A stretch of DNA of 64,000 bases from an uncultured Fibrobacteria bacterium (GCA_963716395.1 OY970309.1:1-64000); one strand, 5' to 3'; shown: positions 1 to 12,872, numbered from the stretch's first letter. Notes: generated by a model from the letters alone, not told the origin. Made by a program: numbers and translations.

Positions 1-84
1 AAATAAATACAAGCACCATTTTTTTGGTGAGGTGCCCAAACGTACAACCCTATTTTTGAATTGGGTTAAACGTATGTTTTGCAC

Positions 85-334
85 GCATAACGCCGCGCTG
101 AGCCGCGAACCCGAACGGGTTTGCGGAGAAGTGGCGGCGGTAGATGAGTTGAGCCGAGCGGGCGCTCGCAGCATTGAAAATCGAGCGCAGCGAGATTTTC
201 GAGCCTGCGAGCAAGGTTTGGCGTGCGGTTCGCGGAAGGCGGCGAGCTTGCGAGCGGTTGCTTTCCGCGAACCCCGCCAAACCGCCCCCGAGGCTCCCCG
301 GCGAGGGTTCGCCGGTTCGAGCGCGTTGTTATGT
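85..334 (-). repeat. attC site, giant 250-bp type (belongs to family A cassette 328-610)
   Basis: GCATAAC...GTTATGT. Outer arms pair (CGCGCT/AGCGCG, GAGCC/GGTTC, GCGAACCC/GGGTTCGC) with unpaired G and C on the + (bottom) strand. Confidence 0.88.
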
Positions 335-603
335 TGAAACGGGTAGACCATGTTTTATTTTCATATTAATTGAAATATCGTTATTGAGCGCGAAATTATC
401 TGTTTTAAATGGGACCGAGGCAAAATAATTGGAGCCGCAAATTGAATTGGTTTTGTTTCGCTTCATATCGTTATATCGTAAATCTGGGCGCGGGGCTTTG
501 TATTTACATTGTCATTATTTGGTTTTAATAGCAACGGGCAGATCATTGAACGGCAAAACTCTGACCCAATTGCGTGACCACGAAGAGTTAGTCTGGGTTT
601 GCA

Positions 604-853
604 ACATAACGCCGCGCTGAGCCGCGAACCCGAACGGGTTTGCGGAGAAGTGGCGGCGGTAGACGAGTTGAGCCGAGCGGGCGCTCGCAGCATTGAAAAT
701 CGAGCGCAGTGAGATTTTCGAGCCTGCGAGCAAGGTTTGGCGTGCGGTTCGCGGAAGGCGGCGAGCTTGCGAGCGGTTGCTTTCCGCGAACCCCGCCAAA
801 CCGCCCCCGAGGCTCCCCGCCGAGGGTTCGCCGGTTCGAGCGCGTTGTTCTAC
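604..853 (-). repeat. attC site, giant 250-bp type
   Basis: ACATAAC...GTTCTAC, near-identical to 85-334. Confidence 0.88.
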
Positions 854-1119
854 AGATGCATTTATTATTCATTGATCGCGCCGATTTAATTGAATTTAAA
901 TTTTTTAATCGCTCTGCTGTCAAAAATTGGGTAGCAACTCGAATTGGTTTTCCCGGCGCGTTTCTGAGAAAAGGCTTTAAATAGCACGAAATGATTTGGC
1001 TTTTGCATTTGCGCCGTGCCCACGCATTACACCTTTTAATTGAGCGAATTTATTTTTGTAGTTGAGTTAACTTCATTAATGGTAATGCCAGTTCTCAATA
1101 ATCACGGCGCCATAATACT

Positions 1120-1369
1120 GTAGAACGCCGCGCTGAGCCGCGAACCCGAACGGGTTTGCGGAGAAGTGGCGGCGGTAGACGAGTTGAGCCGAGCGGGCGC
1201 TCGCAGCATTGAAAATCGAGCGCAGCGAGATTTTCGAGCCTGCGAGCAAGGTTTGGCGTGCGGTTCGCGGAAGGCGGCGAGCTTGCGAGCGGTTGCTTTC
1301 CGCGAACCCCGCCAAACCGCCCCCGAGGCTCCCCGCCGAGGGTTCGCCGGTTCGAGCGCGTTGTTCTAC
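1120..1369 (-). repeat. attC site, giant 250-bp type
   Basis: GTAGAAC...GTTCTAC, near-identical copy. Confidence 0.88.
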
Positions 1370-1610
1370 AGATGCATTCATTTTCGCGCCGGTTTAATAT
1401 TTTTTCCTGACTAAAGGTAATCATAAGATCAAATTGGTTTTCCCGGCGCGCTTCTGAGTGAATGCTTTAAATAGCACGAAACTGATTTGGTTTTTGCATT
1501 TGCGACGTGCCCGCGCATTACACTTCATCAGTGAGCACATTGATCTTTGTAGTTGAGATGAACTCAATCCAAGCATTACCCACTCTCAGTAAGCACGGCG
1601 CCATAATACT

Positions 1611-1860
1611 GTAGAACGCCGCGCTGAGCCGCGAACCCGAACGGGTTTGCGGAGAAGTGGCGGCGGTAGACGAGTTGAGCCGAGCGGGCGCTCGCAGCAT
1701 TGAAAATCGAGCGCAGCGAGATTTTCGAGCCTGCGAGCAAGGTTTGGCGTGCGGTTCGCGGAAGGCGGCGAGCTTGCGAGCGGTTGCTTTCCGCGAACCC
1801 CGCCAAACCGCCCCCGAGGCTCCCCGCCGAGGGTTCGCCGGTTCGAGCGCGTTGTTCTAC
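1611..1860 (-). repeat. attC site, giant 250-bp type
   Basis: GTAGAAC...GTTCTAC, near-identical copy. Confidence 0.88.
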
Positions 1861-2104
1861 AGATGCATTCATTGTTCGCGCCGGTTTAATATTTTTTCCT
1901 GACTAAAGGTAATCATAAGATCAAATTGGTTTTCCCGGCGCGCTTCTGAGTGAATGCTTTAAATAGCACGAACTGATTTGGTTTTTGCATTTGCGACGTG
2001 CCCACGCATTACACCTTTATAATTGAGCGACATTAATTTTTGTAGTTGAGTTAACTTCAATTAATGGTAATGCCAGTTCTCAATAATCACGGCGCCATAA
2101 TACT

Positions 2105-2253
2105 GTAGAACGCGCGCGCTGAGCCGCAAGGCGTCGAGCGGGGTGGAAACCCCGCGGTCGGCGCGCTAGATTGCGTTGAGCCGAACGGTTGATCGCGAAG
2201 AACAGCCAAACGGCGTGACGACAACGCGAGACGGTTCGAGCGGCTTGTTATAC
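2105..2253 (-). repeat. attC site, shorter divergent 149-bp type (belongs to cassette 2247-2760)
   Basis: GTAGAAC...GTTATAC. Shares outer arms (GCGCTGAGCCGC...GGTTCGAGCG) with the giant type but lacks its two large internal hairpins. Confidence 0.75.
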
Positions 2254-2760
2254 AATTTTTTTCAGTGAGCATTTTTTAGAATTGTATATTATATTGCCGA
2301 ACCGCATTCACATTTCCACTAACTCGCACCAATTTGCATAGTCCAGTTCCAACTATTCGGGATCTCAACAGGTTCGACCCGGAAACTATATTTAATGCCT
2401 CTGTTATTGCCGATCTAAGCATTTCGCATGTGTTCGCAGATCACATTCATTGAAATAGCGCTTTATTTTAAAATATTTTCCAATCAATATTTAAATCAAT
2501 CGCGAGTCAAAATATTTCGCCTTGGTTGCCAATATTCTGATTTTTGTCTTGAATCTAGCATTGAATCACTATTGGTTCCGAACTATGACAGTGATTTCAT
2601 GGCACTCGGGATTTCCTGTTTTCATCTTCAAATTAGCGGTCGCAACGATTCTTTGGTCGCCACCACATCATCTTTTGATAGCATTTCAAGGATATCAATT
2701 TTATCTTTGAAATGTAAATATCGATTATCAAGGTACTACGTTATTTTTCATTCGTATAAC
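2247..2760 (-). pseudogene. Unique ~510-bp cassette with a broken, gene-like AT-rich sequence
   Basis: GTTATAC...GTATAAC ends, with an ATG right after the core on the minus strand. Protein-like stretches (e.g. YLDNRYLHFKDKIDILEMLSKDDVVATKESLRPLI) are interrupted by frame changes and stops. Confidence 0.45.
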
Positions 2761-3015
2761 GCCGCGCTGAGCCGCGAACCCGAACGGGTTTGCGGAGAAG
2801 TGGCGGCGGTAAGATGAATTACGAGCCGAGCGGGCGCTCGCAGCGATTGAAAATCGTAGCGCAGCGAGAATATTTCGAGCCTGCGAGCAAGGTTTGGCGT
2901 GCGGTTCGCGGAAGGCGTGCGAGCTTGCGAGCGGTTGCTTTCCGCGAACCCCGCCAAACCGCCCCCGAGGCTCGCTCGCCGTTTAGGGTTCGCCGGTTCG
3001 AGCGCGTTGTTCTAC
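2754..3015 (-). repeat. attC site, giant type with many small indels (262 bp)
   Basis: GTATAAC...GTTCTAC; same sequence as the other copies with scattered 1-3 nt insertions. Confidence 0.82.
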
Positions 3016-3256
3016 AGATGCATTCATTGTTCGCGCCGGTTTAATATTTTTTCCTGACTAAAGGTAATCATAAGATCAAATTGGTTTTCCCGGCGCGCTT
3101 CTGAGTGAATGCTTTAAATAGCACGAACTGATTTGGTTTTTGCATTTGCGACGTGCCCGCGCATTGCACTTCATCAGCGAGTACATTGATCTTTGTGGTT
3201 GAGATGAACTCAATTTGAGCATTACCCACTCTCAGTAAGCACGGCGCCATAATTCT

Positions 3257-3506
3257 GTAGAACGCCGCGCTGAGCCGCGAACCCGAACGGGTTTGCGGAG
3301 AAGTGGCGGCGGTAGACGAGTTGAGCCGAGCGGGCGCTCGCAGCATTGAAAATCGAGCGCAGCGAGATTTTCGAGCCTGCGAGCAAGGTTTGGCGTGCGG
3401 TTCGCGGAAGGCGGCGAGCTTGCGAGCGGTTGCTTTCCGCGAACCCCGCCAAACCGCCCCCGAGGCTCCCCGCCGAGGGTTCGCCGGTTCGAGCGCGTTG
3501 TTCTAC
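3257..3506 (-). repeat. attC site, giant 250-bp type
   Basis: GTAGAAC...GTTCTAC. Confidence 0.88.
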
Positions 3507-3774
3507 AGATGCATTTATTATTCATTGATCGCGCCGATTTAATTGAATTTAATTTTTTAATCGCTCTGACTGTCAAGGTAATTAGGTAGCAACTCGAATT
3601 GGTTTTCCCGGCGCGTTTCTGAGTAAATGCTTTAAATAGCACGAAATGATTTGGCTTTTGCATTTGCGCCGTGCCCACGCATTACACCTTTTAATTGAGC
3701 GAATTGATTTTTGTAGTTGAGTTAACTTCATTAATGGTAATGCCAGTTCTCAATAATCACGGCGCCATAATACT

Positions 3775-4024
3775 GTAGAACGCCGCGCTGAGCCGCGAAC
3801 CCGAACGGGTTCGCGGAGAAGTGGCGGCGGTAGACGAGTTGAGCCGAGCGGGCGCTCGCAGCATTGAAAATCGAGCGCAGCGAGATTTTCGAGCCTGCGA
3901 GCAAGGTTTGGCGTGCGGTTCGCGGAAGGCGGCGAGCTTGCGAGCGGTTGCTTTCCGCGAACCCCGCCAAACCGCCCCCGAGGCTCCCCGCCGAGGGTTC
4001 GCCGGTTCGAGCGCGTTGTTCTAC
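3775..4024 (-). repeat. attC site, giant 250-bp type
   Basis: GTAGAAC...GTTCTAC. Confidence 0.88.
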
Positions 4025-4265
4025 AGATGCATTCATTGTTCGCGCCGGTTTAATATTTTTTCCTGACTAAAGGTAATCATAAGATCAAATTGGTTTTCCC
4101 GGCGCGCTTCTGAGTGAATGCTTTAAATAGCACGAACTGATTTGGTTTTTGCATTTGCGACGTGCCCGCGCATTGCACTTCATCAGCGAGCACATTGATC
4201 TTTGTGGTTGAGATGAACTCAATTTGAGCATTACCCACTCTCAGTAAGCACGGCGCCATAATTCT

Positions 4266-4515
4266 GTAGAACGCCGCGCTGAGCCGCGAACCCGAACGGG
4301 TTTGCGGAGAAGTGGCGGCGGTAGACGAGTTGAGCCGAGCGGGCGCTCGCAGCATTGAAAATCGAACGCAGCGAGATTTTCGAGCCTGCGAGCAAGGTTT
4401 GGCGTGCGGTTCGCGGAAGGCGGCGAGCTTGCGAGCGGTTGCTTTCCGCGAACCCCGCCAAACCGCCCCCGAGGCTCCCCGCCGAGGGTTCGCCGGTTCG
4501 AGCGCGTTGTTCTAC
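4266..4515 (-). repeat. attC site, giant 250-bp type
   Basis: GTAGAAC...GTTCTAC. Confidence 0.88.
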
Positions 4516-4781
4516 AGATGCATTTATTATTCATTGATCGCGCCGATTTAATTGAATTTAAATTTTTTAATCGCTCTGCTGTCAAAAATTGGGTAGCAAC
4601 TCGAATTGGTTTTCCCGGCGCGTTTCTGAGAAAAGGCTTTAAATAGCACGAAATGATTTGGCTTTTGCATTTGCGCCGTGCCCACGCATTACACCTTTTA
4701 ATTGAGCGAATTTATTTTTGTAGTTGAGTTAACTTCATTAATGGTAATGCCAGTTCTCAATAATCACGGCGCCATAATACT

Positions 4782-5031
4782 GTAGAACGCCGCGCTGAGC
4801 CGCGAACCCGAACGGGTTTGCGGAGAAGTGGCGGCGGTAGATGAGTTGAGCCGAGCGGGCGCTCGCAGCATTGAAAATCGAGCGCAGCGAGATTTTCGAG
4901 CCTGCGAGCAAGGTTTGGCGTGCGGTTCGCGGAAGGCGGCGAGCTTGCGAGCGGTTGCTTTCCGCGAACCCCGCCAAACCGCCCCCGAGGCTCCCCGGTG
5001 AGGGTTCGCCGGTTCGAGCGCGTTGTTATGT
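4782..5031 (-). repeat. attC site, giant 250-bp type
   Basis: GTAGAAC...GTTATGT. Confidence 0.88.
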
Positions 5032-5301
5032 TGAAACGGGTAGACCATGTTTTATTTTCATATTAATTGAAATATCGTTATTGAGCGAGAAATTATCTGT
5101 TTTAAATGGGACCGAGGCAAAATAATTGGAGCCGCAATATTGAATTGGTTTTGTTTCGCTTCATATCGTTATATCGTAAATCTGGGCGCGGGGCTTTGTA
5201 TTTACATTGTATTTATTTGGTTTTAATAGCAACGGGCAGATCGTTGAACGGCAAAACTCTAACCCAATTGCTTGACCGCGAAGAGTTAGTCTGGGTTTGC
5301 A

Positions 5302-5551
5302 ACATAACGCCGCGCTGAGCCGCGAACCCGAACGGGTTTGCGGAGAAGTGGCGGCGGTAGATGAGTTGAGCCGAGCGGGCGCTCGCAGCATTGAAAATCG
5401 AGCGCAGTGAGATTTTCGAGCCTGCGAGCAAGGTTTGGCGTGCGGTTCGCGGAAGGCGGCGAGCTTGCGAGCGGTTGCTTTCCGCGAACCCCGCCAAACC
5501 GCCCCCGAGGCTCCCCGCCGAGGGTTCGCCGGTTCGAGCGCGTTGTTCTAC
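5302..5551 (-). repeat. attC site, giant 250-bp type
   Basis: ACATAAC...GTTCTAC. Confidence 0.88.
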
Positions 5552-5814
5552 AGATGCATTTATTATTCATTGATCGCGCCGGTTTAATAATTTATTTTTT
5601 ACTCTGACTTCAAAGGTAATTGAGTAGCAGATCAAATTGGTTTTCCCGGCGCGCTTCTGAGTGAATGCTTTAAATAGCACGAACTGATTTGGCTTTTGCA
5701 TTTGCGCCGTGCCCACGCATTACACCTTTATAATTGAGCGAATTGATTTTTGTAGTTGAGTTGAACTTCATTAATGGCAATGCCAGTTCTCAATAATCAC
5801 GGCGCCATAATACT

Positions 5815-6064
5815 GTAGAACGCCGCGCTGAGCCGCGAACCCGAACGGGTTTGCGGAGAAGTGGCGGCGGTAGATGAGTTGAGCCGAGCGGGCGCTCGCA
5901 GCATTGAAAATCGAGCGCAGCGAGATTTTCGAGCCTGCGAGCAAGGTTTGGCGTGCGGTTCGCGGAAGGCGGCGAGCTTGCGAGCGGTTGCTTTCCGCGA
6001 ACCCCGCCAAACCGCCCCCGAGGCTCCCCGGTGAGGGTTCGCCGGTTCGAGCGCGTTGTTATGT
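5815..6064 (-). repeat. attC site, giant 250-bp type
   Basis: GTAGAAC...GTTATGT. Confidence 0.88.
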
Positions 6065-6333
6065 TGAAACGGGTAGACCATGTTTTATTTTCATTTTAAT
6101 TGAAATATCGTTATTGAGCGAGAAATTATCTGTTTTAAATGGGACCGAGGCAAAATAATTGGAGCCGCAAATTGAATTGGTTTTGTTTCGCTTCACATCG
6201 TTATATCGTAAATCTGGGCGCGGGGCTTTGTATTTACATTGTTTTTATTTGGTTTTAATAGCAACGGGCAGATCGTTGAACGGCAAAACCCTAACCCACT
6301 TGCTTGACCGCGAAGAGTTAGTCTGGGTTTGCA

Positions 6334-6583
6334 ACATAACGCCGCGCTGAGCCGCGAACCCGAACGGGTTTGCGGAGAAGTGGCGGCGGTAGATGAGTTG
6401 AGCCGAGCGGGCGCTCGCAGCATTGAAAATCGAGCGCAGCGAGATTTTCGAGCCTGCGAGCAAGGTTTGGCGTGCGGTTCGCGGAAGGCGGCGAGCTTGC
6501 GAGCGGTTGCTTTCCGCGAACCCCGCCAAACCGCCCCCGAGGCTCCCCGGCGAGGGTTCGCCGGTTCGAGCGCGTTGTTATGT
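6334..6583 (-). repeat. attC site, giant 250-bp type (first cassette after attI)
   Basis: ACATAAC...GTTATGT. Confidence 0.88.
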
Positions 6584-6852
6584 TGAAACGGGTAGACCAT
6601 GTTTTATTTTCATATTAATTGAAATATCGTTATTGAGCGCGAAATTATCTGTTTTAAATGGGACCGAGGCAAAATAATTGGAGCCGCAAATTGAATTGGT
6701 TTTGTTTCGCTTCACATCGTTATATCGTAAATCTGGGCGCGGGGCTTTGTATTTACATTGTCTTTATTTGGTTTTAATAGCAACGGGCAGATCATTGAAC
6801 GGCAAAACTCTAACCCACTTGCTTGACCGCGAAGAGTTAGTCTGGGTTTGCA

Positions 6853-6875
6853 ACATAACGATCTTATTAACCATT
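6853..6875 (-). other. Putative attI site
   Basis: The last cassette ends in CAACATAAC but is followed by unique sequence instead of an attC. The minus strand reads GGTTAATA-AGATC-GTTATGT (G/TT crossover), located 5' of the integrase. Confidence 0.7.
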
Positions 6876-7460
6876 TCCAATGTTCATCTGTTCCAGTTGC
6901 AAGGTCCTAAGTATAAGCCTCAAATTATTCCCACATTCCCGCTTTTTACAAGCTCTCGGCTCCTTATCCTGTTTCCATTAAACATCCTCAAATTTGAATC
7001 AAATGGATCCAGTCGCTGTTGGTCAAAGGTTCAGGAAGCATAGCCAATCATGCCTTAAAAGGGAAATTTGAAGGCCTGATTTGCTCGACAAAAACGTTCA
7101 GAAGCTTGGCCGCTTATATTAACCACCTCCATCTTTAACCTGTCTTGGATTTTTTTCGGATTCTTGGCTTCGATCCATTTTCATTCTTGGACAGCGAGAA
7201 TGTGCCCGGAATCACATCTTCTTTTTTGCGAAGTCGATATCCTTTGGCCTTCAACGCGGTGAAGGGAATGGAAATTATGCAGCGGAAAAATGCTAGGTCA
7301 GGCAGAACCCAATTCAACGGAAATTTTCCGGAAAAAGGCGGAACGAAACTAAGAACCTCGGCGAACCCCCGCGAGCTGCCAAGCGGTAAAGGCGAGGTCT
7401 TGTCTTTACCGCGTTATCGAAGGGAAATTCACTTCTCAACGCAAATACAAGTCCATCATT

Positions 7461-9008
7461 TTGACCAAGCTTCGGTGGTTTGAAATGAATTCGAGACCTT
7501 CGACCCGGGTATCTCTTGCAATCCGGCTGGGCAATAAGAAAAAACATGAGGAACTCATTATCCGGGTGGTGATTAAACTTGCGCGTACCTCGGTCCGGAA
7601 ACGCGGCAATGGAATTTGGCTTTTTGCCGGACACGTATCCGAAGGCGTCGGGCCTTTTGATCAGGATATTTATCAACAGCTACGCGACAAATTTCAACGG
7701 GCTTTGGAAGTCAATAAATCGATTTCAAAAGGTTCTGTCCCATATTATCACAAATGGGCTCGTGATTATTTAACGTGGTGCGACTACCAAAAATCGGATC
7801 CGCGTCGGTACGAAAGCATCGATTTTTTTTTGCTTTCAATGTGGGATTCTGGGCATAAGGGAATTGATTTGCGACAGGCCAACGATGCGATTCAAATTCT
7901 GTTTCGCTTGCTGGCTGCACCGGATGAGAAGCCTCCCGAAAAGCTCGGCGAAGAGTCTTCGATGCCAATCCAAAAACCCATCGCTTTGCCCGAAGTTGCG
8001 CAGGAGAAAACCTCTATTCCGCGGCAAAATCCCAGCGGCCTTGAACCGGCCAATTGGACCGAGGCTTGGGAAAGCCTGGAAAGGGAAATCAAATGGCGGC
8101 ATTATTCGCGCAAAACTTTGAAGGCCTACCGACATTGGTCGGAAAGGTTTTGCGAATTCGTGAATCATAAGCCACCGGTCAGCGTGAGTGCGTCGGATGC
8201 CAAGGCCTTTCTCGCGCATTTGGCATTGCGGAAAGCGGTTTCGGCGGCGACCCAGGATCAGGCGTTCAACGCCTTGCGGTTTTTCTTCATCCATGCGCTG
8301 CACAAGGATTACGGCGGCCTCTCCGATACACCCCGTGCGCGCAAGCGGCCCGCAGTTCCCACCACCTTGGGGCGCGACGAGGTGGCGCGACTGCTGGCGC
8401 GGCTTTCCGCGCCGCATGATTTGGTGTCGGCCATGCTGTATGGCTGCGGGTTGCGGCTATCGGAGGCCATCGGGTTGCGCGTGCAGGATCTCGACTTTGC
8501 CTCGGCCCATGTCTTGGTGCAATTCGGCAAGCGGGGTAAGAGCCGGGCGGTGCCCTTGCCGACCCGCCTCAAAGATCGTCTTTCAGCCCATCTGGAATTG
8601 GTGCACCGTGGGCATGCAAAGGATCTCGCACAAGGTTATGACGGGGTCTTTTTGCCTGAGGATTTGGGAAAGAAATATCCGGGGGCGGCCAAGGAATGGC
8701 CCTGGCAGTGGGTTTTTCCAGCGCAGCACCTGGTCGCGGTACCGGAGACCGGGCAACATCGACGTTACCATGTGCACGAAAGCGGTGTGCAGCACGCCAT
8801 TCGCCAGGCGGTGGCAGGATTAGGCTTTTCCCAACGGGTATCGGCCCACACTTTGCGCCACAGTTATGCCACGCATCTGCTGCAAGCGGGCTACGACATC
8901 CGCACCATCCAGACCTTGCTGGGGCATTCCGACGTGAAGACCACCATGATTTACACCCAGGCCATGCGCCCCACGCCGCGGCGCGCAATCAGCCCCATGG
9001 ATTTATGA
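7461..9008 (+). CDS. intI: Integron integrase A with N-terminal extension (start uncertain: TTG 7461, ATG 7485 or later)
   Basis: Tyrosine-recombinase residues YGCGLR, K, HTLRHSYATH, LGH and TTMIY, plus the integron-specific insertion (KYPGAAKEWPWQWVFP...RRYHVHES). Confidence 0.93.
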   Translation: MTKLRWFEMNSRPSTRVSLAIRLGNKKKHEELIIRVVIKLARTSVRKRGNGIWLFAGHVSEGVGPFDQDIYQQLRDKFQRALEVNKSISKGSVPYYHKWARDYLTWCDYQKSDPRRYESIDFFLLSMWDSGHKGIDLRQANDAIQILFRLLAAPDEKPPEKLGEESSMPIQKPIALPEVAQEKTSIPRQNPSGLEPANWTEAWESLEREIKWRHYSRKTLKAYRHWSERFCEFVNHKPPVSVSASDAKAFLAHLALRKAVSAATQDQAFNALRFFFIHALHKDYGGLSDTPRARKRPAVPTTLGRDEVARLLARLSAPHDLVSAMLYGCGLRLSEAIGLRVQDLDFASAHVLVQFGKRGKSRAVPLPTRLKDRLSAHLELVHRGHAKDLAQGYDGVFLPEDLGKKYPGAAKEWPWQWVFPAQHLVAVPETGQHRRYHVHESGVQHAIRQAVAGLGFSQRVSAHTLRHSYATHLLQAGYDIRTIQTLLGHSDVKTTMIYTQAMRPTPRRAISPMDL

Positions 9009-10360
9009 GCGGTAAGGAGTCGTTCCCGGCCGAGGAGGTTTGTCCGGCGCCGGCATTTATTTTTTCGGAATCCGGCGCCGCGTTGACGCCGGATGCATCC
9101 GGATTGAGGGATATGGAAAACGGTTTGTTCGCCCAGGCGGAACGCGATTTTGCCGCGGAGTTGGAGCGCGATGCGGCCGTTCCGTCGCATCATCGGCCTC
9201 ACTATACAAGGTGGTTGTCGGCCTTTTTGGAAAACTGCCGCGAACTGGAAATTCCGCCCGCAGAAGCCGGCGCCTGGGAAGGGTTTGAAAACCGGATGCG
9301 CCAAAACACCCGGCCTGAATTTCAGATCGCGCAGGCCCGCCGGGCCGTGGAAAAGTTTTTGGGCATGGCTCCCGCAACTCCCCCGCCGGCCGAATCCGAA
9401 ACGCCGCAGGATTGGCCTTCGGCGTTCGCGGCCCTGACCGCGGCCATTCGCCTGCGCAATTATTCGGAGAAAACGCTGAAGTCCTACCAGCATTGGGTGC
9501 GCGGCTTCTGCGGCTTTTGCAAAAGATCGGTGGCTGAAATCGCCTCGCCCCACGCCAAGGATTATTTGACGCATCTGGCCGTGGACCGCCAGGTATCGGG
9601 TTCGACGCAGAACCAGGCCTTCTCGGCGCTGTTGTTTTTCTTCACCGTCGTGCTGCAGCGCGAGTTAAAGAACATGCAGGACACGCCGCGCGCCAAGCGC
9701 CGCGAAAACGTGCCCACGGTGTTGAGCCGCGAAGAGGTGCGGACCGTGCTCTCGGGGTTGCGGCCGCCGTTCGACCTGTTCGCGCGCCTGTTGTACGGAT
9801 GCGGCTTGCGGCTGCAAGAGGCGCTTTCGTTGCGCGTGCAGGATCTCGATCTCGATGCCGGATTGCTGGTGGCGTTCAACACCAAGGGTTCGAAAAGCCG
9901 CCGCCTGCCTTTGCCCGAGAGCTTGCGTCCGGAGCTGGGCGCGCATCTCGCCGCGGTGCGCGGTCTGTTTGCGCAGGACTTGGCCCTGGGGTTCGCCGGC
10001 GTCTTTCTGCCCGCCGCGCTGGAAAAAAAATATCCGGCCGCGGCCACGGAGTGGCCCTGGCAATGGGTTTTTCCCGCCGGGCAATTGACGCCCGTGGAAG
10101 GCGGCGGCCTACGGCGTTATCACCTGCATGAAACCCGCGTGCAAAAAGAAATGCAGGCCGCGGTGCGCGCCGCCGGCCTTTCCAAACGGGCCACGGCGCA
10201 TACTTTGCGGCATAGCTACGCCACGCATTTGCTGCAAATGGGCTATGATATCCGCACCGTGCAGGAATTGTTGGGGCACCACGATGTGACCACGACCATG
10301 GTGTATACGCATGCCGTGCAAACCCTGGCGGGAAAAATCGTCAGCCCCTTGGACCTTTGA
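9005..10360 (+). CDS. intI: Integron integrase B with N-terminal extension (start ATG 9005 overlapping the stop of integrase A, or ATG 9113 after GAGGG)
   Basis: YGCGLR, HTLRHSYATH, LGH, TTMVY; KYPAAATEWPWQWVFP...RRYHLHETRVQK integron insertion. Confidence 0.93.
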   Translation: MSGKESFPAEEVCPAPAFIFSESGAALTPDASGLRDMENGLFAQAERDFAAELERDAAVPSHHRPHYTRWLSAFLENCRELEIPPAEAGAWEGFENRMRQNTRPEFQIAQARRAVEKFLGMAPATPPPAESETPQDWPSAFAALTAAIRLRNYSEKTLKSYQHWVRGFCGFCKRSVAEIASPHAKDYLTHLAVDRQVSGSTQNQAFSALLFFFTVVLQRELKNMQDTPRAKRRENVPTVLSREEVRTVLSGLRPPFDLFARLLYGCGLRLQEALSLRVQDLDLDAGLLVAFNTKGSKSRRLPLPESLRPELGAHLAAVRGLFAQDLALGFAGVFLPAALEKKYPAAATEWPWQWVFPAGQLTPVEGGGLRRYHLHETRVQKEMQAAVRAAGLSKRATAHTLRHSYATHLLQMGYDIRTVQELLGHHDVTTTMVYTHAVQTLAGKIVSPLDL

Positions 10361-10668
10361 GGGGATCCGGCTTCGCGCGCTGAACCCATCTATTTGGCGG
10401 AAGCAAAAAGGCGCAGACGCGCAAAGCGAGTGCGAATACGGCTGGAAAACCGGTCACCCGAGGAGGCTGGCTGCAAACCTGCCGCGCACGGGAAATCGCC
10501 CCCTGGGGAGGATTTTGGGAGATTGAGACTATGTCTTGATCTTTTGCGGCGCAGAGTCTATGATTGTTTTGTCGGGTCGAACCGGCCGAGGTGGATAGCA
10601 GGAAAAAACGGAAATAGCGATAGAGCCAGCAACAGGTTTAGAAATGCAGATGAAGCAACGAGGAAGCC

Positions 10669-10956
10669 ATGGTTAAAATCACCCCGCGCGGAATTTCCGC
10701 TGCGTTTCCCGGGATCCTCGCCGCCGGCAGCTTGTTGACCTTGGATCGTCTGCCCCGCGGCCTGCGCGCCATCATCCACCGGCTGGAAACCGACGGATCG
10801 CTTAAGACCCATTTGCTCGAACTTGGATTCGTGCCCGGAAGCCCCGTGTCGTTCCTGATGAGCACCCCGTTTGGGGATCCGAACGTCTACGCGCTGCGCG
10901 GAACGTCTTTCGCGCTCCGGAAAAACGAAGCCCGATGCGTGGTCGTGACGATTTAG
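10669..10956 (+). CDS. feoA: Ferrous iron transport protein A
   Basis: LLELGFVPG...PFGDP...LRGTSFALRKNEA FeoA signature, upstream of feoB. Confidence 0.88.
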   Translation: MVKITPRGISAAFPGILAAGSLLTLDRLPRGLRAIIHRLETDGSLKTHLLELGFVPGSPVSFLMSTPFGDPNVYALRGTSFALRKNEARCVVVTI

Positions 10957-12872
10957 CCTCCCTTCCCCTGGTCGCCTTGGTGGGCGCCGCCAACTCCGGC
11001 AAGACCACCTTATTCAACCTCATCACCGCCTCGCATTACGACACGGTGAATTATCCGGGGTCGACGGTGGAATTCACCTTGGGCGAGGCGGCGCGTTTGC
11101 CCGGCTTTCCCTGCCGGGTCATGGATACGCCGGGGCTTTCGAGCCTAGCGGCCGTGAGCCCCGATGAACGGGTCACGGTGAACGCCCTGTTCGACGGCAC
11201 GCATCGCCCCGATCTGGTGGTATGCGTGGTCGACGGCAACCAGCTTTCGCGCCATCTCTATCTCGCGCGCCAATTGCAGGCGGTCGGCTTCGCCGTGGCC
11301 GTGGCCGTCACCATGCAGGATCGCCTGCGCAGCCGCGGTTTGCAACTCCATGTGGATCGGCTGTCCGAATTGATCGACTGCCCGGTGCTGGCCCTCGATC
11401 CCCGGCAGCGCACGGCGCTGAAACCCCTCGAAGCCATGCTGATCCGGACCCGGCAGGCGGCCGGCGATCGCGCCTGCCCCGAAGCCGAAAGCCTGCGGCG
11501 CACGGTGGCGACGTTCGATGAGGAACGCATCGAACAGGTTTTCCGCGCCCTGGATGCGGTGGAAAAGATCGCGGTGCAACCCGCCGGTCCCCCGGGAGCG
11601 GCGCCGCCAACCCGCACGCCGTTTTCCGTCGACCGCATTTTGCTGCACCCGGTGCTGGGTCTAGTGCTGTTCCTGCTCGTGATGACGGCCATCTTCACGT
11701 CGATCTTCTGGCTGGCCGCGCCCTTTATGAATGCGATTGATGCCGGTTTCGGCTGGGCTATTTCGGCCCTAAAAACCCATCTCCCCGCCACGTGGGCCAC
11801 GGATTTTCTCGCCGACGGCCTCATCGGCGGCATCGGGGCCGTGGCGGTCTACGTGCCGCAAATCCTGATCCTGTTCGTGGCCATGGGCTATCTCGAAGAC
11901 TCCGGGTATCTGGCGCGCGGCGCGGCGTTGGTGGACAAGCCCCTTTCCAAAATCGGCCTGAACGGCAAGTCGTTCGTACCGTTACTTTCGGGTTACGCTT
12001 GCGCCATCCCCGCCATGATGGCAGCGCGCACCATTTCCAACCGCGCCGAGCGCAACCTGACCTTGCTCGTCATTCCCATGATGAGCTGCAGCGCGCGGCT
12101 GCCCATCTACACCTTGCTGCTGGCGTTTCTCCTGCCGCAGAACAAACCCTGGATCGGCGGCCTGGCGCTGACCGGGCTGTATGTGCTGGGCATGGTGCTG
12201 GGCGCCATCATTTCCACCGTGGCCTCGCGCTTCATCCGCAGCGGGGAGGCGTCGCGCTTCATCCTGGAATTGCCCGCCATGAAAAGGCCCGTGTTCCGCG
12301 TGGTGTTGTCTTCGACCTACCACAAAACCATGGTCTACGCGCGCAAGGCGGGCCTGGCCATCGTGATCATCTCCTCGGCCCTGTGGGTTTTGACCCATAC
12401 GCCTTCCCCGCACATGACCGGCCCCGACCCCGACTACGTGACCCTGTCGCATTCCTATGCCGCCGACATCGGGCATGTCATCGAGCCCATCACCCGGCCC
12501 ATGGGGCTGGATTGGCGCGGCGGCGTGGCCCTGATTTGCGGCACGGCGGCCCGCGAGGTTTTCGTCAGCGCCCTGGCCCTGGCCTACCGTGTGCACGGGG
12601 AAAAAGACAAGGGCCTGACCGGCCACCTGCTGGCGGCCATGCCGTCCCTGCGCTTCGAAGACACGGGGCAGCGCATTTTCACCACGGCTTCGAGTCTGGG
12701 GCTGCTGGTGTTTTACATCATCGCCCTGCAATGCTTCGCCACCGTGGCCGTGGCGCGGCATGAAATGGGATCGTGGAAGCTGGCCATCGGGCAGTTGGTT
12801 TTGTTTACCGGCACGGCCTATGCATTGGCGGTGGCCACCGTACAGGGCTTGCGGGCCCTGGGAGTGGCCTGA
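10935..12872 (+). CDS. feoB: Ferrous iron transport protein B
   Basis: GAANSGKTT, NYPGSTVE and DTPG GTPase motifs; LEDSGY..R, GYACAIP and MSCSARLP membrane motifs. Confidence 0.95.
   Translation: MRGRDDLASLPLVALVGAANSGKTTLFNLITASHYDTVNYPGSTVEFTLGEAARLPGFPCRVMDTPGLSSLAAVSPDERVTVNALFDGTHRPDLVVCVVDGNQLSRHLYLARQLQAVGFAVAVAVTMQDRLRSRGLQLHVDRLSELIDCPVLALDPRQRTALKPLEAMLIRTRQAAGDRACPEAESLRRTVATFDEERIEQVFRALDAVEKIAVQPAGPPGAAPPTRTPFSVDRILLHPVLGLVLFLLVMTAIFTSIFWLAAPFMNAIDAGFGWAISALKTHLPATWATDFLADGLIGGIGAVAVYVPQILILFVAMGYLEDSGYLARGAALVDKPLSKIGLNGKSFVPLLSGYACAIPAMMAARTISNRAERNLTLLVIPMMSCSARLPIYTLLLAFLLPQNKPWIGGLALTGLYVLGMVLGAIISTVASRFIRSGEASRFILELPAMKRPVFRVVLSSTYHKTMVYARKAGLAIVIISSALWVLTHTPSPHMTGPDPDYVTLSHSYAADIGHVIEPITRPMGLDWRGGVALICGTAAREVFVSALALAYRVHGEKDKGLTGHLLAAMPSLRFEDTGQRIFTTASSLGLLVFYIIALQCFATVAVARHEMGSWKLAIGQLVLFTGTAYALAVATVQGLRALGVA

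Follow-up and report, generated by a model that had tools for sequence, protein, structure and literature searches.

A 64,000-nt stretch of DNA from an uncultured Fibrobacteria bacterium (GCA_963716395.1 OY970309.1:1-64000), hereafter the window, opens with an array of long repeats and spacers (positions 1–6850), adjoined by two integrase genes (7461–10360, + strand) that are transcribed away from the array (Table 1). Integron integrases are tyrosine recombinases with an IntI-specific additional domain. Both ORFs match the integron integrase family TIGR02249 with 343 and 363 bits (cut-off 265), covering profile positions 3–313 and 5–313 of 315. The start codon of intI-1 is uncertain (TTG at 7461 or ATG at 7485), and the ATG of intI-2 overlaps the intI-1 stop codon (ATGA). 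The two proteins share an N-terminal extension of ~200 aa, which in IntI-1 contains a second PF13495-type stretch. On the − strand, the array/attI junction reads ...GATCG|TTATGTTG, with the boundary at 6850/6851. At its other end, the cassette array may extend beyond the start of the window.

Table 1. Features of the array and the adjoining integrase genes, in window coordinates.
Feature	Position	Strand	Remarks
End of further cassette	1..84	−	Cut by contig start
attC 1	85..334	− (top strand); + (recombining bottom strand)	250 bp
A-type cassette body	335..603	−	ORF-less, AT-rich; ends GTTATGTTG...CAACATAAC
A-type cassette body, other copies	5032–5301, 6065–6333, 6584–6850
attC 2	604..853	−	250 bp
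B-type cassette body	854..1119	−	ORF-less; ends GTTCTACAG...CTGTAGAAC
B-type cassette body, other copies	3507–3774, 4516–4781, 5552–5814
attC 3 (reference copy)	1120..1369	−	250 bp
attC 3, R box	1120–1126/1363–1369
attC 3, L box	1129–1134/1355–1360
attC 3, bulged G	1354
attC 3, hairpin H1	1199–1247
attC 3, hairpin H2	1250–1318
C-type cassette body	1370..1610	−	ORF-less; B-related
C-type cassette body, other copies	3016–3256, 4025–4265
attC 4	1611..1860	−	250 bp
B/C mosaic cassette body	1861–2104
13th attC	2105..2253	−	149 bp; missing from the initial annotation; same R/L arms, interior different and shorter
Unique 500-bp cassette body	2254..2753	−	Ends GTTATAC...GTATAAC; no clear ORF
attC 5	2754..3015	−	262 bp; indel-rich, 94% identity to 250-bp form
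attC 6	3257..3506	−	250 bp
attC 7	3775..4024	−	250 bp
attC 8	4266..4515	−	250 bp
attC 9	4782..5031	−	250 bp
attC 10	5302..5551	−	250 bp
attC 11	5815..6064	−	250 bp
attC 12 (of attI-proximal cassette)	6334..6583	−	250 bp
attI and promoter region	about 6851..7460
intI-1, integron integrase	7461..9008	+	N-terminal extension of ~200 aa
intI-2, integron integrase	9005..10360	+	451 aa

A 33-nt repeat core occurs 12 times in the window, always on the + strand, from position 89 to 6370, and is not expected by chance (0/100 shuffles). With attC length counted from the start of the xxxxAAC box to the end of the GTTxxxx box, 11 copies measure exactly 250 bp and the remaining one 262 bp, spanning 85–6583; these are the lengths given by the initial annotation. 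AAC and GTT are present in all 12 sites, which are 94–100% identical to one another and are not independent, as only three or four cassette families are represented. No overlapping contig of four soil runs contains the 12 bases by which the 262-bp copy is longer, so this copy may be decayed or carry assembly errors.

Within the R boxes of the 12 sites, AAC and GTT alone are fixed and the other bases follow the spacer. Complementary ends are specific to each spacer type (GTTATGTTG/CAACATAAC, GTTCTACAG/CTGTAGAAC and GTTATAC/GTATAAC), hybrid R boxes are found at junctions of unlike cassettes, and the cassette boundary falls at G|TT, with complementary ends for every cassette. As read from the sequences, attC-internal variants go together with the right-hand spacer in 4/4 A-type and 8/8 B/C-type cases, which is the expectation from whole-cassette movement. 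The four variable R-box bases (e.g. GTAG, ACAT) depart from RYYY/RRRY, and the RYYYAAC/GTTRRRY consensus is matched at AAC/GTT alone; published descriptions of attC sites call only these triplets conserved (PMC5371416, PMC4889954).

Folding of both strands as ssDNA revealed the architecture of the repeat. The two long interior hairpins quoted by the initial annotation are present in the sequence and form in the minimum-energy fold of either strand, with z-scores of −6.35 (+) and −5.05 (−) and 0/200 shuffles folding equally well. The + strand fold consists of a 7-bp R stem, a 2 × 2 unpaired spacer, and a 6-bp L stem, followed on the 3′ arm by an unpaired G (1354 in the copy at 1120–1369). Beyond the bulged G lie five pairs, a second extra base 6–7 nt on, and seven further pairs, which lead to a variable terminal structure of ~190 nt in which a short GGGC/GCCC stem surrounds the self-folding hairpins H1 and H2. 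This arrangement of the R/L arms is the standard layout recognised by integron integrases. The attC hallmarks first proposed for these repeats (AAC/GTT cores, an R/L outer stem, and a bulged G on the + strand) and their branched, multi-hairpin terminal structure are supported. Because the bulged G lies on its 3′ arm, the + strand is the bottom strand, an assignment that also agrees with the position of the integrases and with the ORF direction of cassettes in a second array described below. The + strand fold is more stable than the − strand fold in 22/22 distinct sites, and the + strand contains 92 G versus 74 C.

The pairs of the L box are invariant in 19/19 sites, and the predicted pairing probability of the L box and AAC/GTT ranges from 0.32 to 0.87 across the 12 window sites. 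Four of these (85–334, 4782–5031, 5815–6064, and 6334–6583, the last with an interior identical to that of the first) adopt a competing minimum-energy fold of the interior, in which a local hairpin forms in the 5′ arm and the R/L stem is lost; the R/L stem is also absent from the minimum-energy fold of the 149-bp site. Shuffling the interior leaves the predicted R/L pairing probability at a median of 0.734 (100 shuffles) versus 0.736 for the native sequence, and therefore the hairpins are unnecessary for folding at equilibrium. An alignment of 19 distinct sites was tested against a structure derived from one of its own members. Both partners change in 14 of 83 pairs, mainly in a few diverged sites of one other contig; shuffles average 5.4 (0/500 as high), and sliding the partners by 1–3 columns gives 0–5. 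Judging from these sequences, diverged members retain both hairpins by compensatory changes, as in the replacement of GGTTTGGCG/CGCCAAACC by GATTTGGCG/CGCCAAATC.

The second array with the same attC family lies on a public MAG contig (CAVQGK010000002.1, G061:C2; hereafter the G061 array) and consists of 13 sites with the same arms. Twelve of them measure 148, 202, 213, 234, 235, 247, 250 (four), 251, and 290 bp; the 13th, a terminal site, was extracted as 254 bp and is missing the AAC box, so that AAC and GTT are found in 12/13. Its cassettes follow the rule of complementary ends seen in the window, with the additional pairs GTTGAAC/GTTCAAC, GTTAGCC/GGCTAAC, GTTGTGC/GCACAAC, and GTTATAT/ATATAAC. 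The array includes ordinary gene cassettes: in six, the ORF ends 0–43 nt before the attC on the strand equivalent to the − strand of the window, and two of the six look like toxin-antitoxin pairs on reading their sequences. Cassettes common to the two assemblies are 90–98% identical and have different neighbours in G061, whose flanking genes are unrelated to the genome of the window. An integron integrase was not found in G061 (best match E of 7e-10 over 58 residues), and misbinning or chimerism of the contig is possible. The 250-bp form is joined to other flanks in contigs from 4/4 soil runs aligned to the site; soil-run contigs aligned over 2090–3030 contain no joints.

The length of an attC is a description of known sites and not a mechanistic requirement. 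Published ranges are 57–141 bp (PMC5371416) and 55–141 nt with loops of 14–102 nt (PMC7370490), and the terminal structures of the IntegronFinder training set are described as 20–100 nt (PMC4889954). At 250 and 262 bp in the window and 202–290 bp in the G061 array, the sites fall outside the published 55–141 bp, with 250 bp almost twice the maximum, in keeping with the earlier claim that they far exceed the usual attC size. The initial annotation had also placed them above a 200-bp default cut-off of IntegronFinder. The default of the --max-attc-size option is 200, and arrays with sites this long may escape integron searches run with standard settings. The existence of the size option itself is borne out by a paper that set it to 300 (PMC13616975).

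We consider it probable that positions 1–10360 of the window form a sedentary chromosomal integron, whose 250-bp attC sites have a lineage-specific, expanded interior and would recombine through the bottom strand as usual. Two translationally coupled integron-integrase genes are read rightwards, with attI at about 6851–7460, and the cassette array runs leftwards on the − strand to the contig edge, the 250-bp repeats being the attC sites of its cassettes. Recombination would use the bottom strand in its folded form and cross over at G|TT. The interior would represent an enlargement of the terminal structure particular to this lineage, built of palindromic modules and not a captured genomic repeat; its tolerance may stem from the self-pairing of each module, which keeps the long R/L stem available. 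The multiple copies of three ORF-less cassettes may reflect either integrase action or homologous exchange between near-identical 250-bp sites; homologous recombination could have produced these duplications.

A different reading, possible but rather unlikely, is that the repeats derive from attC sites on which the integrases no longer act, and that they grew in a satellite-like manner by unequal homologous recombination, carrying ORF-less spacers along. The near-identity of the 12 sites, the presence of only three repeated spacer families without a convincing ORF, the B/C mosaic spacer, which is expected from homologous exchange, and the lack of joints in the soil-run contigs are all consistent with such growth. 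However, both integrase genes are full-length matches above the family cut-off, the same cassettes have different neighbours in G061, the 250-bp site sits on other flanks in the soil contigs, and the linkage of attC variants to the right-hand spacer holds throughout (4/4 and 8/8). Satellite-like growth and whole-cassette movement are mutually compatible processes.

The interior could also have a function of its own, either docking the additional N-terminal domain of the integrases (cf. the arm sites of lambda integrase) or acting at the RNA level between cassettes as a terminator, insulator, or processing signal; we regard such a function as improbable. Invariant blocks (GAGCGGGCGC, TTGCGAGC, and CCCCCGA) persist even in the 202- and 213-bp members, the H1 loop is conserved as GAGCG(C/A)AGCGA, and GCGAGC/GCTCGC occurs four times per 250 nt in the site versus 0.56 per kb genome-wide, although two of the four copies simply correspond to the opposite strands of the H1 stem. 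The extension of both integrases, with the second PF13495-type stretch in IntI-1, would suit a docking role. Yet extended integrase frames of 410–598 aa occur in 31/32 matches from other genomes of the class, and the attC sites of inspectable relatives with extended integrases measure from about 60 bp (G008) to 137–164 bp (G014), indicating that extended integrases are not tied to long sites. Searched with a covariance model of the interior, 0/150 other genomes of the class contained it, Rfam yielded no match to window positions 1–12000 (E up to 1), and terminator-like matches are confined to the outer arms, with none at the interior hairpins. It is decidedly improbable that the interior serves as an additional, arm-type platform to which the duplicated N-terminal SAM-like domain of these Fibrobacterota integrases binds, which would make the integron a two-point (arm plus core) recombination system resembling that of phage lambda; the modules named for such a platform are GAGCGGGCGC, the H1 loop GAGCGNAGCGA, the repeated GCGAGC, and CCCCCGA, and the long attC would then carry regulatory or directional information.

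The initial annotation had suggested that REP-like hairpins were captured inside an attC. In the 3.75-Mb genome, all copies of the interior lie within the 12 attC sites, and the best partial matches elsewhere are 13–24 nt (E ≥ 0.12); in two pattern scans covering 185,579 species genomes, the interior turned up in the G061 array only. Because there is no copy of the interior outside attC sites, and with none in the 150 other class genomes, REP-like capture is not supported. A REP- or MITE-type dispersed repeat was likewise rejected as the identity of the interior, since dispersed copies are lacking (12/12 inside the array, 0/150 elsewhere in the class). The insertion of a REP-like or MITE-like palindromic element into an ordinary attC, with that single site then copied, would account for the modular interior and for the H2 length variants with replaced tips (234, 235, 247, and 290 bp), but is very improbable given these searches, and the two-hairpin interior of relatives at 137–164 bp points to gradual growth. 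The probability that the array is an artefact of long-read metagenome assembly, a collapsed or concatenated repeat, is negligible: the window does begin at a contig end, its opposite contig end falls within a group II intron, and the 12 scattered extra bases of the 262-bp copy lack short-read contig support, but the same 250-bp unit and cassettes recur in an independent assembly and among the contigs from four soil runs, and the copies differ at linked positions and in their neighbours.

The proposed sedentary integron has clear counterparts among known systems. A branched terminal structure has been described for the VCR sites of Vibrio (PMC2727003, PMC12614218), which likewise form a chromosomal array of highly homogeneous attC sites and share the long R/L stem with bottom-strand extrahelical bases, the symmetrical unpaired spacer, and the large branched terminal structure (PMC2727003, PMC5371416, PMC12614218). 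Vibrio arrays contain toxin-antitoxin cassettes, as do, apparently, those of G061. In contrast, VCRs are described as about 120–129 bp with a 65-nt branched terminal structure, whereas the sites here are 250 bp (202–290 bp in G061) with ~190 nt of terminal structure and two long GC-rich hairpins; the host is a soil Fibrobacterota and not Vibrio, two tandem integrases carry N-terminal extensions, and most window cassettes are ORF-less. The novelty is one of size, the branched terminal structure being already known from the Vibrio repeats. Classical attC sites (59-base elements such as attCaadA7) have the same AAC/GTT triplets, R/L boxes, bulged G marking the bottom strand, and crossover at G|TT, with the last six bases of the core going with the next cassette; the sites here are two to four times longer, their terminal structure measures ~190 nt versus 3 to about 100 nt, and the RYYY/RRRY parts of the core are poorly matched. 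The attC sites of G014, from the same family, display AAC, two unpaired bases, a 6-bp L box, a bulged G, a further stem, and a two-hairpin interior, but are 137–164 bp and have no interior sequence in common with the attC family of the window.

Rfam presumably includes the DUF1874 motif, and if it does, the Rfam search implies that positions 1–12000 contain no match to this motif. The DUF1874 motif is a multi-stem structure that recurs in consecutive intergenic regions and is proposed by its authors to be a possible unusual attC with structure beyond a simple hairpin (Weinberg et al. 2017, PMC5737381). In that description, the authors saw no adjoining integrase (PMC5737381), whereas integrases and attC hallmarks are present here.

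Long attC sites would leave the understanding of how integrons work unchanged. The sharing of one attC family and of cassettes between assemblies with unrelated flanks fits cassette movement between distant hosts. The main detection tools were trained, as described, on loops of at most about 100 nt (PMC4889954), and surveys of integrons in soil metagenomes may undercount such arrays if a length limit is applied. Natural sites of 250–290 bp, with a folded interior of about 190–230 nt, suggest that the ssDNA recombination substrate can far exceed its assumed size, and the natural length series on the same arms (148, 202, 213, 234/235, 247, 250/251, and 290 bp) offers material for studying the influence of terminal-structure size and shape on folding, strand choice, and recombination.

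The 250-bp repeats are well supported as putative attC sites in every structural criterion tested. They lie in the initial 64 kb of a one-contig genome of 3.75 Mb (G000), where a 33-nt repeat core occurs in 12 copies, all on the + strand, between positions 89 and 6370, with none predicted by chance. With the xxxxAAC and GTTxxxx boxes taken as the two ends, 11 sites are exactly 250 bp long and one is 262 bp, bearing out the lengths read in the initial annotation. AT-rich spacers 241-270 bp long separate the sites, except at one broader gap that contains additional elements. Within this gap, a 13th attC of 149 bp, with the outer arms of the 250-bp sites and a different interior, adjoins a unique 500-bp spacer. 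Searching the genome itself (3.75 Mb) returned no copy of the 250-bp sequence beyond the array. The two contig ends of G000 do not meet; the genome is thus left unclosed, and more of the array may lie beyond window position 1. The far contig end breaks off inside a group II intron reverse-transcriptase gene with a YADD motif, and this intron sits within an IS21-type transposase gene.

Two ORFs immediately to the right of the array, intI-1 and intI-2, match TIGR02249 (integron integrase) over its full length, with scores of 343 and 363 bits (curated cut-off 265). The two are 42% identical, and the intI-2 ATG overlaps the intI-1 stop codon in an ATGA. Both genes point away from the array in the usual divergent layout, and the nearest integrase relative among public genomes is likewise in a Fibrobacterota MAG. 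In each protein, ~200 residues precede the usual N-terminal SAM-like domain, and the extension of intI-1 includes a second PF13495 stretch (Pfam). The array ends facing the integrases with CAACATAA, after which a C and then unrelated sequence follow; read on the - strand, GATCG is continued by TTATGTTG, a junction of the attI type whose crossover follows the G.

The R/L-box stem with an unpaired G that had been predicted for the + strand is found in the ssDNA fold of the reference copy. Specifically, the R stem of the + strand has 7 bp and the L stem 6 bp; between them lies a 2x2 unpaired spacer with GC facing TT, and the unpaired G is on the 3' arm beyond the L stem. Past this bulged G come five pairs, an asymmetric loop with one extra 3'-arm base, and seven further pairs. 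In known attC sites, the 3' arm of the bottom strand, called R''-L'', is described as carrying the extra bases: a conserved G plus another base 6-8 nt from it (PMC2727003). Since the extrahelical bases of the + strand lie on the same arm, the + strand is the bottom strand. Three further lines agree with this assignment. The integrases are located on the side that it predicts. The + strand fold is the stabler one in 22 of 22 distinct sites, and the + strand is G-richer (92 G versus 74 C), both features being reported for bottom strands in PMC5371416. Finally, in a second array, contig G061:C2, six cassettes bear ORFs stopping 0-43 nt ahead of their own attC on the strand equivalent to the window - strand.

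The interior consists of two long hairpins, H1 and H2, enclosed by two stems, a short one of GGGC/GCCC and one of GAGCC/GGCTC. Folding both strands, as the initial annotation had proposed, places H1 and H2 in the minimum-energy fold of either one, with fold z-scores of -6.35 and -5.05 for the two strands and a fold as stable in 0 of 200 shuffles. The predicted pairing probability of the L box and AAC/GTT ranges from 0.32 to 0.87 across the 12 window sites. For the interiors of 4 of these 12, the minimum-energy fold is a competing one, in which a local hairpin of the 5' arm (CCGCGAACCC/GGGTTTGCGG) forms and the R/L stem is absent; the 149-bp site folded in its array context also has a minimum-energy structure without the R/L stem. 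Large terminal structures are reported to be able to promote non-recombinogenic folds (PMC5371416). Self-stapling, in which the hairpins would promote the R/L stem, gains no support from equilibrium folding: with the arms kept and the interior shuffled, the native pairing probability of 0.736 compares with a median of 0.734 over 100 shuffles. The outer stem of ~25 bp forms at equilibrium irrespective of the interior, and the hairpins are therefore unnecessary for folding by that measure.

The branched structure is conserved among diverged sites. A MAFFT alignment of 19 distinct sites (202-290 bp), partly wrong for the two most diverged, was compared with the centroid fold of one copy, giving 96.3% paired cells. 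Both-side changes occur in 14 of 83 pairs, counted among close relatives whose diverged members all come from one contig and on a structure taken from one member; shuffles average 5.4 and reach 14 in 0 of 500, and sliding the partners by 1-3 columns leaves 0-5. At the H2 base, the 250-bp form has GGTTTGGCG/CGCCAAACC and the 213-bp form GATTTGGCG/CGCCAAATC; in the 234/235-, 247- and 290-bp forms, the H2 tip is swapped for different sequences that also pair with themselves. Past the L box, the 213-bp site has CATTTGCGGGT/ACCTGCAAATG as its outer stem, and the 202-bp site has CATTCGTGTGT/ACACGCGAATG. Other blocks stay unchanged even in diverged members, namely GAGCGGGCGC, TTGCGAGC, CCCCCGA, and the H1 loop. 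The motif GCGAGC/GCTCGC occurs four times per 250 nt versus 0.56 times per kb genome-wide, two of the four being both strands of one stem.

The cassette ends carry the signature of integron cassettes. Only AAC and GTT are constant in the R boxes, the remaining bases follow the spacer, and an attC between unlike spacers has a hybrid, badly matched R box. Spacer-linked ends and hybrid boxes point to a crossover between the G and the TT, by the classical argument for integron cassettes that Hall, Brookes and Stokes are said to have made in 1991. Twelve of the 13 complete cassette bodies belong to the AT-rich 241-270 bp class and lack an ORF of at least 60 aa. These ORF-less bodies fall into three families (A, B, and C) of three to five copies each, with one B/C mosaic, and the A-type has a 45-aa frame at its attC-proximal end that is intact in three of four copies and frameshifted in one. 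All three families recur in G061:C2 at 90-98% identity. These bodies might carry a promoter or encode a small RNA or a small peptide.

Coordinates and boundary sequences of the features discussed
Feature	Contig	Positions	Detail
Reference 250-bp copy	OY970309.1	1120-1369	+ strand folded
Hairpin H1	250-bp site	80-128	site positions
Hairpin H2	250-bp site	131-199	site positions
149-bp attC	OY970309.1	2105-2253	
262-bp copy	OY970309.1	2754-3015	
Complete cassette bodies	OY970309.1	335-6850	
B/C mosaic body	OY970309.1	1861-2104	
Unique spacer	OY970309.1	2254-2753	start GTTATAC, end GTATAAC
A-type spacers	OY970309.1		start GTTATGTTG, end CAACATAAC
B- and C-type spacers	OY970309.1		start GTTCTACAG, end CTGTAGAAC
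Array end	OY970309.1	6850	attI-type junction
intI-1	OY970309.1	7461-9008	+ strand
intI-2	OY970309.1	9005-10360	+ strand, if ATG is the start
Far contig end	G000 (L013)	9215-10000	group II intron
Shared insertion sequence	G000	1859883-1860998	
Shared insertion sequence	CAVQGK010000002.1 (L056)	356-1471, 7172-8284	two copies inside the G061 array
Second array, 13 sites	CAVQGK010000002.1	2092-17386	
Distal-most attC of second array	CAVQGK010000002.1	17133-17386	extracted as 254 bp
Hairpin elements of G030	L078	1-400, 2815-3195	~380 nt each

Twelve extra bases, scattered along the 262-bp copy, set it apart from the 250-bp form. In contigs of four soil runs from one study, compared over window 2090-3030, the 250-bp form is present in 4 of 4 runs, and every contig covering the copy lacks all 12 bases. 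The 262-bp copy has thus either decayed or been poorly polished in the assembly. In the soil contigs, the 250-bp form is attached to different flanks that begin within the R box, no recombination joints are reported over this interval, and the unique cassette has zero coverage.

Related sites were sought by a pattern scan for the two arms 190-220 nt apart in 185,579 species genomes, a collection from which G000 itself may be absent. Among the 19 stretches returned, only eight are true sites, all on CAVQGK010000002.1 (G061:C2), a contig labelled as an uncultured Chloroflexia MAG; a second scan of genome contigs, using the 5' arm and the conserved GAGCGGGCGC block, gave 80 stretches, the real ones again from this contig alone. 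Eleven metagenome-contig stretches with arms 190-220 nt apart proved on inspection to be unrelated GC-rich sequence. The 13 sites of G061:C2 share the arms of the 250-bp sites and measure 148, 202, 213, 234, 235, 247, 250 (four), 251, and 290 bp, plus a terminal site. Every new cassette has its own complementary R-box ends; some bear ORFs, and two of these look like toxin-antitoxin pairs. The distal-most attC is missing its AAC box, and array-type sequence stops precisely at the expected crossover point, giving way to GC-rich chromosomal DNA. No integron integrase was found in G061 (best match E 7e-10 across 58 residues), and the contig starts ~2 kb from the proximal array end. Outside the array, only 2 of 13 ORFs of at least 200 aa have even a weak match in G000, which suggests an unrelated host, provided that the contig is neither misbinned nor chimeric. 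G000 and G061:C2 have in common a 1.1-kb insertion sequence that is 99.9-100% identical; together with the unrelated flanks, this fits DNA passing recently between distant hosts, or else misbinning or chimerism of the contig.

Known attC sites are reported to span 57-141 bp, with terminal structures ranging from three unpaired bases to the complex branched structures of VCRs (PMC5371416). The VCR 2/1 site has a branched terminal structure of 65 nt (PMC2727003), and symmetrical spacers and a mismatch bubble are described for Vibrio sites (PMC12614218). A branched terminal structure is already known, and the size is the new point. The --max-attc-size option of IntegronFinder has a default of 200. 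A value of 300 is used in one paper (PMC13616975), the IntegronFinder model was built on sites with 20-100-nt terminal structures (PMC4889954), and HattCI-based pipelines deal with sites of 55-141 nt and loops of 14-102 nt (PMC7370490). No report of an attC above 200 bp was found in the main texts of openly accessible papers. Weinberg et al. proposed the multi-stem DUF1874 motif as a possible unusual attC (PMC5737381); no Rfam family matches window 1-12000 at E up to 1. Scans with sigma-70 and terminator consensuses gave nothing interpretable for the host phylum. An accessory function of the interior is possible but not likely.

The initial annotation suggested that REP-like hairpins were captured inside an attC. 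The interior is absent from the genome outside the 12 sites (best other matches 13-24 nt, E at least 0.12), and a covariance model built on the 146-nt interior has no match among 150 further genomes from the class, many of these fragmented MAGs; capture of a dispersed REP or MITE is therefore not supported. A BLAST search of 60 related genomes with the 250-bp site yielded two partial hits near E 1e-3 and no true match. Integron integrases above the family cut-off are common in the lineage (26 of 61 genomes, G000 included), and the open frames of the lineage integrases are mostly 430-600 aa; the N-terminal extension is thus a lineage trait. Extended frames (410-598 aa) are seen in 31 of 32 integrase matches in other genomes of the class.

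In related genomes, the contig usually stops within ~2 kb of intI, and attC lengths are compared for assembled arrays only. Among integrase relatives in other phyla, two (L015 and L017) show no repeated attC, and a third (L019) has apparently ordinary sites of about 90-100 bp. In G030, of the same family as G000, an integron array contains two hairpin elements with GCCTAAC...GTTAGGC or GTTGCGC boxes 276-288 nt apart and pairing that extends ~60 nt outside the boxes; they may represent another very long type of attC or an insertion of some other element into the array. The attC sites of G008, a relative in the same genus, are ~60 bp long, and G014, a relative in the same family, has four, of 137, 139, 157, and 164 bp. 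The G014 sites share the arm design of the 250-bp site, including the bulged G, and their interior is also two-hairpin. Because the assembled lineage arrays vary from ~60 to 164 bp and the G014 sites are already two-hairpin, we interpret the 250-bp site as the upper size extreme of a tendency towards branched attC sites in this lineage, with an integrase extension that does not track attC length.
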